DNA of 11,276 nucleotides, from positions 1-11,276 of the IMG/VR virus record IMGVR_UViG_2548876964_000017; one strand, 5' to 3'. The position numbers were made by a program. This document shows positions 1-3,000 of the stretch, piece by piece (the stretch's first letter is position 1; the number at the start of each line of letters is the position of its first letter). The stretch comes from a virus. Taxonomy: Duplodnaviria > Heunggongvirae > Uroviricota > Caudoviricetes.

Positions 1-3000
1 CGGTATTGACGCCGTTACCGTCTGTCATGAAGGGCACAAAATAAACGCCCTCACTCTCCCTGTTTTTATACCCGCCGTACACGGTGTCGTACTGGGTAGC
101 GTATGTATTTTTCCAGTAATACGTCGTGTCACCACAAATCCACGGCACATCTGCAGCACTGCCACCATGGCACTGCGCGTTAAACACGGAGAGGTCAGCA
201 CGAAACTGTGCCAGCATGGCTGTAAACAGCGCAGGTTGCTGTGCGTGGGTGGCGGCGCTCATGTCAAACTCTCCCTGCATCCAGCACACCGCCAGCAACA
301 CATTTTTCGGGTTCTTCTGTAATGCAGCTTTAGTGCGCGCAATCAGGTCCTGATATAACGGTTTACCCACACCCCAGCGCGCCGAATCCTGGCTGGCCCC
401 CGTGTCCGCACTGAATGTCCCCTCAGCGCCCTGGGTGAATGCAGAACCACCACGACAGCATGGTACCAGCAGGATCCCCGCGTTATTCGGGATATACGGA
501 AGCAGTTTTTTGGCAATATATAAGCCCTGGCCGACACAGCCGTACTGCCCTTTGCTCAGGTCTGCCTTCGGATGATTCAGCGTACTCATATCCTGCACAT
601 CATGCAGGCAGTGGTCAGCCGGAATGATGTCGTTATACGTACAACTCTCTCCACCCGGAGTTACCGTGCTGCGGCGCGCCAGCTGTTTAATGCGCGGATC
701 CGGAGCATCGTAAGAATCCGGTAACGGAAGCCCTTCACCGTAGGCCATGCCGTTGGACTGTCCGGCAAGCACAACCACGTAGAACCAGTCCGGCTCAGAT
801 GAAGGGCCGACCTGTGGATCTCCTTCAATAGCCACCGCCTGCATCAGTGTGTACGGCGTAATGGCAACCGGTCCGCCGTATGGCTGCCAGCCCTCTTTCA
901 GTTTGTGTGTCAGCTTTTCCGCAAGGTCTGACGGCGACGCCGCCCTGACAACATCATAGTGTTTAAATGCCATGAATCCTCCCGGCCGGGATAATATTGT
1001 GAGTAAAATGAGGAGCGGGCTGAAGTCCGGAAGTTACAGGACAATGGCAGAAGAGAGACAACAGCCCGCAATACGAAAAAGGCCGCGCTATTGCGCAGAG
1101 TGATTACTGTCGGATATTATTCGCCAGCTGAAATATTACTTCACGTTTTGTTGTTTATTCCTTGCCGCCCGCGTCTCCCTGCGCGGGCTTTTTTTGTCCA
1201 TAAGAAAGCCCCTCCGGAGAGGGGCTGGAGAGTGGCGCTATGTGCCATTGCATGGTGCCGGGTGCCTCCCGGTGAATTCAGTACCAGCACCTGAATCCGC
1301 GATTATCCCATATACCTACTCGCTGATTGCCCCTCCGCACAGGGGGATTCACCATGCCAGTTTCTTTTAACAAACTCCCCGCAAACCAGACAACAGTCAA
1401 CCGCCTGAATTGTGAGACATTTAAAAAAAAGGCCCGCAAAAGCGAGCCAGGGAAAATAAGTGTGGCGCGTTGTACTGGATTCGAACCAGTGACCGATTGC
1501 TTAGAAGGCAATTGCTCTGTCCGGCTGAGCTAACAACGCAGGATACAGATAATGGACCGCCTTCGGGGACCCGAACTCCGCGCAACCAGCTTCGAAAGCT
1601 GGCGCTCTTTCCTGATGAGCTAATGGCGGTATGTGATGGTGGCCCTTGCTGGATTTGAACCAGCGACCTGGCGATTATGAGTCGCTCGCTCTCACCACTG
1701 AGCTAAAGGGCCGGGTCAAAAAAATAATAATCAGATGAAAATCAATAATCAAGCCCTTGCCTGGATACATATCTGTCTGGCGGGAAGCCATAATAGCGGT
1801 GAAATACAGAAATAAAGTAGGACCAGCTTGAATAACCGCATTTTTCTGCTACAGCCTGTCCATATCCATGCCGGGAACATAACATATTCACAGCAACACG
1901 CATCCGCTCTTCCAGCAACAAGCGACTGAACATGTGCCCTTCATTTTTCAGTTTTATCTTTAACAAACTCTCACTCATATGCAGGCGTAACGCAATCGCA
2001 CCAAGCGTCCAGCTTGCTGATATATCTGTCTGAATTATCGCCCTGACTTTGGCACTTATACTGGATAAACATCCACTTAAAAATAATAATATCCGTTCAT
2101 CTGATTCAAACAGCGACAGGCATGCCATCATAAGAAACATATCCGTGGTATCTCCGGAAAATCTCTGGCTGGTAATTAAAGCCTCAGCCAACGCAGGGTT
2201 GTTGGGTTCCAGTGACAGATAAAGCGGAACGTCAGTCAGATGAGTTCTTGTCAGCTTATGCTGAATTTCCAGATATTGACTTACTATGGAATGGTTTATA
2301 TCGAAAATTTTAACTTTGCCATAATGCATAAGGAAAAGCGCCCTGATGCATTTGGTGGCCAGAACGACTGAGCCGGGCTTAAGTGACAACGTATCCTTTT
2401 CAAGAAAAATATTAATTGGGGAGCAAACCATGATAACTGAACAGACAACAACCATTATAATTTTACTTTCATTAGCAATTGGTTAGTTCAATTATAGCCC
2501 CAAAAGGTAAATTATCATCAACACATAAGCAAAGGACTGACAGGTGCCGCTAACACCCACCAGCCGCCCATTTACCACAAATAAAAAAGCCTTCAGGACT
2601 GAAGGCGTCTGTAACAACCGCACTGATAGTCTGCCAGACCCGCCATAACAAGCTGGGTCAGTATTAACTGGCAGCGTTCGCGTGAAAGGTAAGTATTCTG
2701 CGCAATCTCCCCGACTGTCGCCGGTTCGGTGACGCTTAATTCATCAAACACAACTCTGGCGGTTTCTGTCATATCCTGCTGTTTCAGCATGTCTTTTTAC
2801 CCTTTCCGGTTAACGTGACACACCAATAACTCTTGCCGAAAAAGCCAGCAAGCTGAAAGACCTGTATTAATAACTACCAGCACATTTAACGCACTGCGCT
2901 ACTTTGCGGGCACAAAAAACCCGCTCAGAGGCGGGGTCAAGCTATGCGGCGAAATAACCACTCTTAACAGCATACCTGATTTTTTACGTACGTAAATGCT

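Follow-up and report, generated by a model that had tools for sequence, protein, structure and literature searches.

An AraC-family gene matching psrA and a conserved small phage gene between Q and the tRNAs of a lambdoid prophage

An AraC-family gene that matches psrA

The stretch of DNA analysed here, called the window throughout (11,276 nucleotides (nt); positions 1 to 11,276 of IMG/VR virus record IMGVR_UViG_2548876964_000017), carries at 1742-2790 two neighbouring open reading frames (ORFs), one for an AraC-like protein of 237 amino acids (aa) and one for a protein of 65 aa. All genes of the window lie on the minus strand and together form a segment of a lambdoid prophage, at the junction of its early and late regions, from an Escherichia coli of enterohaemorrhagic (EHEC) or atypical enteropathogenic (aEPEC) type. 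A preliminary description of this DNA had read the two ORFs as putative transcription factor genes lying between the antiterminator gene Q and the tRNA genes. Both ORFs are real and do occupy that position, together with a CPBP protease gene that went unmentioned (Table 1), and RefSeq annotates both in many EHEC genomes whose DNA is identical here. The surrounding 3.1 kb has 100% identical copies in many non-O157 EHEC genomes, at least 80% of this region is present in 535 complete genomes, and over its full length the window is matched best, at 99.3% identity, by a prophage of O145:H28 RM12581.

Table 1. Features of the locus and its flanks, in window coordinates.
Feature	Position	Strand	Basis or remark
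psrA (assigned), AraC/XylS-family regulator, 237 aa	2455-1742	minus	ORF; Pfam helix-turn-helix (HTH) matches; 100% identity to ECs1087
Small conserved phage gene, 65 aa, probable winged helix	2790-2593	minus	phrog_331; Sakai ECs1086/ECs2192 family
psrA cassette replacing the DNA methylase of related phages	1716-2520		blastn homology gap, ~800 bp
Promoter-like site for psrA, ATGATA-16-TATAAT	2518-2491	minus	Best sigma-70-like match, 10/12; consensus match only
pR'-like late promoter	-35 TTTACG 2996-2991; -10 TATGCT 2974-2969; predicted start ~2962	minus	Homology to Sp5
t1, first hairpin and T-run	2935-2914 (hairpin 2935-2920)	minus	27-42 nt past the predicted pR' start
t2, intrinsic terminator GCCTTCAG-TCCT-GAAGGC and T-run	2606-2579 (hairpin 2606-2589)	minus	Overlaps the small-ORF stop codon
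Antiterminator Q	4427-4047	minus	Pfam Phage_antitermQ, E = 4.9e-52
CPBP/CAAX-type intramembrane protease	3901-3077	minus	Pfam Rce1-like, E = 1.4e-19; GC 38%
tRNA cluster (CAT anticodon, Arg-TCG, Arg-TCT; ileZ-argN-argO)	1712-1463	minus	ARAGORN, RefSeq
Terminator-like hairpin after the tRNAs	1448-1431	minus	First terminator downstream of psrA

By identity of its product, the AraC-like gene of the window is psrA, an already published regulator. The 237-aa protein is 100% identical, across all 237 aa, to the product of the Sp4 prophage ORF ECs1087 in O157:H7 Sakai (DNA 99.9%), and the same protein, WP_000261909.1, is found unchanged in TW14359, EDL933, O111 11128 and O145 RM12581. A paper from the Tree laboratory names 'psrA (ecs1087, Sp4)' and describes a PsrA/GadE cascade (PMC13502914, 2026). 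The protein has the C-terminal double HTH of ~100 aa that defines the AraC/XylS family, passing the Pfam cut-offs for HTH_18 (36.6 bits, cut-off 33.6) and HTH_AraC (35.3 bits, cut-off 26.6) over residues 155-230 only, and the DNA-binding domain of GadX (3mkl) matches it with E = 1.5e-18.

Comparison with the prophage regulators that the preliminary description had singled out for a homology search (PatE, Psr and the PerC/Pch type) matched the protein to PsrA and, more distantly, to PatE. The copy in Sakai Sp11, ECs2191, is 91% identical to PsrA and PatE (ECs0287, Sakai Sp1) is 37-38% identical; a PerC family domain was matched by neither of the two window proteins in Pfam or NCBIfam. The published identity between PsrA and PsrB is 90%, and since the 91% of ECs2191 fits this figure, we take it to be PsrB. 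To judge from its relatives, the prophage also has the company expected of the Psr family, namely a lambdoid prophage carrying a Pch regulator and effector loci: the closest relatives have a separate PerC/Pch gene (pch) ~6 kb further downstream, past the end of the window, and O111 11128 carries the effector genes tccP2 and espV beyond that. A psr gene is present in 726 of 5426 complete E. coli genomes, at 1324 places, and PsrA is mainly confined to this species.

In public annotation the PsrA protein is merely a 'helix-turn-helix domain-containing protein', and the Sakai record annotates both ECs1087 and ECs2191 as 195 aa (extracted loci 28804-29391 and 39933-40520). The family alignment supports the 237-aa start instead: the N-terminus M..VCSVI is common to GadW, YdeO, AppY and PatE. 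Because this N-terminus is conserved and the alignments run from residue 1, the longer start is favoured, and the 195-aa products of both Sakai genes are probably truncated at the N-terminus.

The N-terminal ~130 aa of the AraC-like protein had been described as lacking a recognisable ligand domain. It is true that Pfam has no domain over this part of PsrA, but the region is not an orphan, because it is homologous from residue 1 to PatE, GadW, AppY and YdeO. BLASTP alignments from residue 1 give 35% identity to GadW, 31% to YdeO and 29% to AppY, and the N-terminal 130 residues on their own still align with these three and with PatE. The NCBIfam YdeO model (NF007407) covers residues 1-229 (E = 9e-30), with a score well short of the equivalog cut-off (104.1 bits vs 348); the GadX model likewise scores 88 vs 500. 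To judge from its sequence, PsrA is a relative of YdeO and not YdeO itself. YdeO, for its part, also activates gadE. The DNA-binding domain of PsrA is 39-46% identical to those of the GadW/YdeO/AppY group and 43% identical to that of GadX. These similarities place PsrA among the AraC/XylS activators of the GadX/GadW/YdeO/AppY subfamily, with the N-terminal domain of that subfamily joined to the C-terminal double HTH.

The published role of the Psr regulators concerns the bacterial host. According to reviews and later papers, PsrA and PsrB raise GadE and YhiF, leading to repression of the LEE (locus of enterocyte effacement) type III secretion system; PsrB binds to the promoters of gadE and hdeA and raises acid resistance, and PsrA contributes to persistence in sheep. 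Reviews also describe PatE as a prophage-borne activator of acid-resistance genes. The PsrA of the window would likewise be expected to switch on host gadE and yhiF, with acid resistance going up and LEE type III secretion going down, and thus to act on host genes. The suggestion made earlier, that the AraC-like regulator may control host genes, is therefore in keeping with the published role of PsrA in gadE/yhiF, LEE and acid-resistance regulation. What the analysis adds is a re-identification: the regulator was already known, and so was the way in which it links prophage carriage in EHEC to acid resistance and to type III secretion. The identical psrA allele is common to O157 and to O111, O145 and O103-type strains.

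The small gene and the late leader

The 65-aa ORF is a genuine gene under purifying selection. Its dismissal as a non-coding artefact was rejected on a median ratio of non-synonymous to synonymous substitution rates (dN/dS) of 0.10 in a set of 22 homologues ranging from E. coli to Proteus, with dN near 0.1 and synonymous sites saturated. Upstream in-frame stops fix its start at MLKQQDMTE in many species, so longer annotated versions of 79-106 aa were rejected as artefacts: in the window, as in many species, stop codons break their upstream extension.

The product matches phrog_331, a family of phage proteins of unassigned role, over residues 1-64 (E = 6e-37), and its fold is probably a winged helix. 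Profile searches, which detect the HTH of the AraC-like protein clearly, do so weakly and below threshold here: the Pfam TrmB match reaches 17.8 bits against a gathering score of 25.6, and sub-threshold winged-helix matches recur among 28 family members (TrmB in 26, DprA_WH in 24 and MarR_2 in 14). No NCBIfam model and no PDB sequence was matched. The AlphaFold2 (AF2) model has three helices at a mean predicted local distance difference test score (pLDDT) of 69.5, and Foldseek returned nothing significant with it; winged helices of IclR, Z-alpha and ArsR proteins appear at a template modelling (TM) score of 0.63 over 48 residues, with E of at least 0.39. Among 1.84 billion representative proteins we found 87 relatives. 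All are small and stand alone apart from three long proteins of 835-1264 aa, which are matched in several short stretches only, and among the rest no fusion to a methylase or to any other domain was seen. The locus tags ECs1086, ECs2192 and ECs2191 do not occur in the literature searched, where the matches listed for Z2104/Z2105 were judged unrelated.

The small ORF is much commoner than psr. In E. coli its module is found in 2142 of the 5426 complete genomes (~40%), at 4073 places, and about two thirds of these copies are without a psr gene. The survey was extended to 21 further Enterobacterales species, each represented by a single genome. There the small ORF is preceded by a Q gene of varied type and followed, in 19 of the 21, by an N6_N4_Mtase DNA methylase of ~350 aa, ~150 nt further on; an AraC gene follows it in none. 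The conserved module in these 19 species is Q, hairpin, small ORF, hairpin and N6_N4 DNA methylase, and Stx2a phages (Stx, Shiga toxin) have the order Q, small ORF, methylase, tRNAs, stx2. Of the 21 species, 17 have a hairpin in the t1 position, where it precedes the small ORF by 80-130 nt, and 13 have one in the t2 position, with arms that are altered and yet still pair at both sites. By this distribution the 65-aa gene is part of the conserved late-region backbone of lambdoid phages and not psr cargo. Our best guess at its function would be a phage-directed role linked with transcription of the late region or with the methylase.

Promoter and terminator sites were sought by a consensus scan of 1400-4500 on the minus strand. 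The t1 and t2 hairpins flank the small ORF, and t2 is a candidate for the late terminator tR'. The preliminary description had credited both genes with their own promoter and terminator signals; what was found is a promoter-like site for the AraC gene and a terminator for the small ORF, so that neither gene has both. The ~70 nt after t2 (2520-2588, minus strand) are conserved in psr-carrying and methylase-carrying phages and contain an imperfect hairpin of 14 pairs (2565-2535). No known RNA family was matched in an Rfam search of 1716-3076.

The late promoter was placed by homology to Sakai Sp5. Window positions 2996-2914 (minus strand) align with Sp5 DNA that straddles the end of Q933, and t1 corresponds by homology to the hairpin that directly follows that gene. 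The pR' start of Sp5 was mapped by differential RNA sequencing (dRNA-seq), and its transcript crosses the first hairpin before terminating at tR', 258 nt downstream (PMC7547250). The transfer of this start to the window involves a shift of ~142 nt between versions of the Sakai record, which was checked solely against the position of the tR' T-run, and suggests a pR' start near 2962. If this placement is right, Q is separated from pR' by the CPBP gene and pR' from t2 by the small ORF, and psrA is the first gene after t2.

Such an arrangement invites comparison with StxS, and it is possible, at odds well below even, that the small ORF supplies the coding part of a constitutive, prematurely terminated pR'-t2 transcript, a positional counterpart of StxS, and that it would be made in lysogens and could act there on host or prophage genes, independently of PsrA. 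The aligned Sp5 stretch holds both the mapped pR' start and the first hairpin, past which the Sp5 transcript is known to read; in the window the next strong terminator beyond t1 is t2, at the stop codon of the ORF, which predicts an RNA of ~380 nt that includes the ORF; and the layout of terminator, ORF and terminator recurs across genera. Against this, t1 looks competent, with a GC stem and six Ts, and may halt most transcripts before the ORF, the promoter assignment depends on homology and on the coordinate conversion, and the tight methylase link in the other species would fit a late, lytic-phase role equally well. We consider it doubtful that transcripts pass t1 and yield the small protein in lysogens, and unlikely that the protein is made from a constitutive, prematurely ended transcript from pR' (~2962) to t2 (~2580), as a lysogen-expressed, protein-coding counterpart of StxS. 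Were this true, many enterobacterial lambdoid prophages would possess a lysogen-expressed factor that might control the adjacent cargo (the methylase, or here psrA) or host genes. The combination of a small gene, a fixed methylase pairing and a terminator-bracketed site after pR' is uncharacterised in the literature searched, and it is the sole lead from this locus that we think worth keeping.

The psrA cassette and its relation to the small gene

The extent of the psrA cargo was delimited by comparison with phages that carry the methylase in its place. In blastn alignments with the methylase phage Stx2a_1447 and with Escherichia albertii, homology covers 1422-1715/1728 and 2519/2521-2992, with none between, so that it spans the small ORF and ends ~70 nt past it. 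Because it breaks only at ~1716 and ~2520, only the ~800 bp around psrA can be regarded as swapped-in cargo, with a GC content of 40% compared with 49% for the whole window. The view that the two regulators had been inserted together as a pair was not borne out, the small ORF belonging to the backbone. The promoter-like site of psrA falls within the cassette, just upstream of the AraC gene; its TATAAT is conserved in the psr cassettes of Sp11 and phiSTEC1575-Stx2k and absent from the methylase phage. Its activity as a promoter is presumed.

Taken together, these features suggest that an AT-rich psrA cassette with its own sigma-70-type promoter fills a slot between the late-region terminator and ileZ-argN-argO. 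This slot is a cargo-exchange site, which holds either a methylase or psr and which in Stx phages lies directly upstream of the stx position. With pR' and t2 placed as above, psrA would need its own promoter in lysogens; given its place in the slot, any Q-driven induction would transcribe it too, as Q-modified polymerase would read on through the cassette.

Could the two genes nevertheless form a functional pair, with the small winged-helix protein as a co-regulator or antagonist of PsrA, inherited together with it as cargo? They adjoin in all psr prophages examined (the window, O111, O145, Sakai Sp4 and Sp11, and phiSTEC1575-Stx2k), and non-O157 EHEC carry an intact, well-conserved small ORF. 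Their adjacency is, however, explained by the insertion site of the cassette, since the homology to methylase phages continues through the small ORF. Three O157:H7 strains, Sakai, TW14359 and EDL933, have a frameshift in the small ORF that adjoins their working psrA, and an intact copy, 97% identical, is found in Sakai Sp11. The terminator-like hairpin of t2 separates the two genes. With the excess of small-ORF places over psr places in E. coli, and with a methylase and never an AraC gene as the usual neighbour in other species, these observations leave the idea of a joint cargo unsupported, and we regard a partnership of the two proteins as very improbable.

Least probable of all is that the AraC protein chiefly regulates phage functions (late genes, tRNAs or lysis timing) with secondary effects on the host: psrA does lie within the late operon beside phage tRNAs, and its transcription by Q-modified polymerase on induction follows from the gene order, but the phenotypes published for the identical protein have to do with host gadE/yhiF, the LEE and colonisation, phage architecture can do without the gene, related phages having a methylase in the slot, and the chromosomal proteins nearest to it, GadW, YdeO and GadX, regulate acid resistance.

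We therefore prefer, with a probability of about 0.85, the reading in which the locus holds psrA acting on host acid resistance and the LEE, with the small gene as phage backbone and not as its partner. Several points tell against it. Two reviews equate psrA with z1789 in O-island 50 (OI-50, CP-933N). An AraC-family gene was not found in CP-933N of the current EDL933 assembly, nor in Sakai Sp6 or Sp10, and the gene identical to psrA sits in the CP-933M/Sp4 prophage, in agreement with PMC13502914 and not with the OI-50 of the reviews. We took the statement of the Tree laboratory (PMC13502914) as authoritative over the reviews, and the mismatch with z1789/OI-50 stands. Regulation of gadE by PsrA in the source strain is presumed from sequence identity and the literature. 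The frameshift in O157:H7 is not decisive for the independence of the small gene from PsrA, because the Sp11 copy could act in trans. Finally, the AF2 model of PsrA, built from 14 sequences, is poor (pLDDT 59.8), so that nothing firm can be said of a ligand pocket; in a Foldseek search with this model, Rns, CsvR and ToxT ranked first over the full length, with E ~1e-10 and a TM score of only 0.35. As matters stand, psrA carries a generic name in public annotation, is cut to 195 aa in older entries, and is assigned to OI-50 in reviews and to Sp4/CP-933M in current assemblies and by the Tree laboratory.

Genomic surroundings and known systems

On the minus strand, the window begins with replication genes, followed by a hok/sok module, a YgiW/YdeI-type gene, DUF968, RusA and Q, and continues with the CPBP/CAAX protease gene, the 65-aa ORF, the 237-aa ORF, three tRNAs and a nanS-p-type esterase gene, of which only the start lies inside the window and which runs past its end. 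The Q gene shares 74% DNA identity with that of Sakai Sp5 (blastn). The CPBP gene belongs to the Sakai ECs1085 family (phrog_13291), and RefSeq annotates it as a CPBP family intramembrane glutamic endopeptidase. It is located between Q and the two ORFs; it was not found in Sp11 or in Stx phages and for this reason looks like a separate piece of cargo. For the tRNA with the CAT anticodon (1637-1712, minus strand) ARAGORN gives Met, and RefSeq and the Sakai record give tRNA-Ile (ileZ). A CAT-anticodon tRNA of the ileZ kind is read as Ile once it has been modified with lysidine.

Further elements were noted on either side. Between the tRNAs and the nanS-p esterase gene lies a full-length match to the Rfam family STnc100 (1196-1386, minus strand; 138 bits, gathering score 47). 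The hok/sok type I toxin-antitoxin module of the early region occupies 6701-7025 on the minus strand, with the mok/hok frame at 6701-6913 and the Rfam sok match at 6851-7025 (113.5 bits). The YgiW/YdeI-family gene (6237-6581, minus strand) encodes an OB-fold stress-tolerance protein of 114 aa (NCBIfam stress_OB_fold, E = 3e-40), and is likely another host-directed cargo gene.

Among known systems, the psrA locus of Sakai and other O157:H7 strains is the closest to the window. It has the same order of Q, CPBP, small ORF, psrA, ileZ-argN-argO and nanS-p, followed by pch, and differs in a frameshifted small ORF, intact in the window, and in its early region. The PsrB-like locus of Sp11 also has the small ORF upstream and ileZ downstream, with pchB nearby, but its Q is of another type (DUF1133 family) and the CPBP gene is absent; PsrB itself was reported as z2104, taken here as ECs2191. 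PatE (z0321) is a full-length homologue of PsrA with the same two-domain layout, yet its N-terminal domain is just 27% identical and its gene lies in a degraded prophage, outside the slot between Q and the tRNAs.

The relatives outside this prophage family differ from PsrA in setting or in distance. YdeO, GadW, GadX and AppY are AraC-family regulators of acid resistance and stress in E. coli K-12, whereas PsrA is prophage-borne. Rns, CsvR and ToxT, virulence regulators of the AraC family that sense fatty acids and whose structures are solved, match PsrA in the linker and DNA-binding domain (E ~5e-16), but they share only ~20% identity with it, PsrA is ~30 aa shorter, and their fatty-acid pocket is not evidenced for PsrA. 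The StxS or pR'-tR' leader of Sp5, finally, resembles the window in its promoter-proximal sequence, its first hairpin and its position before the next terminator; past the first ~80 nt the likeness in sequence ends, and the interval in the window encodes a protein.

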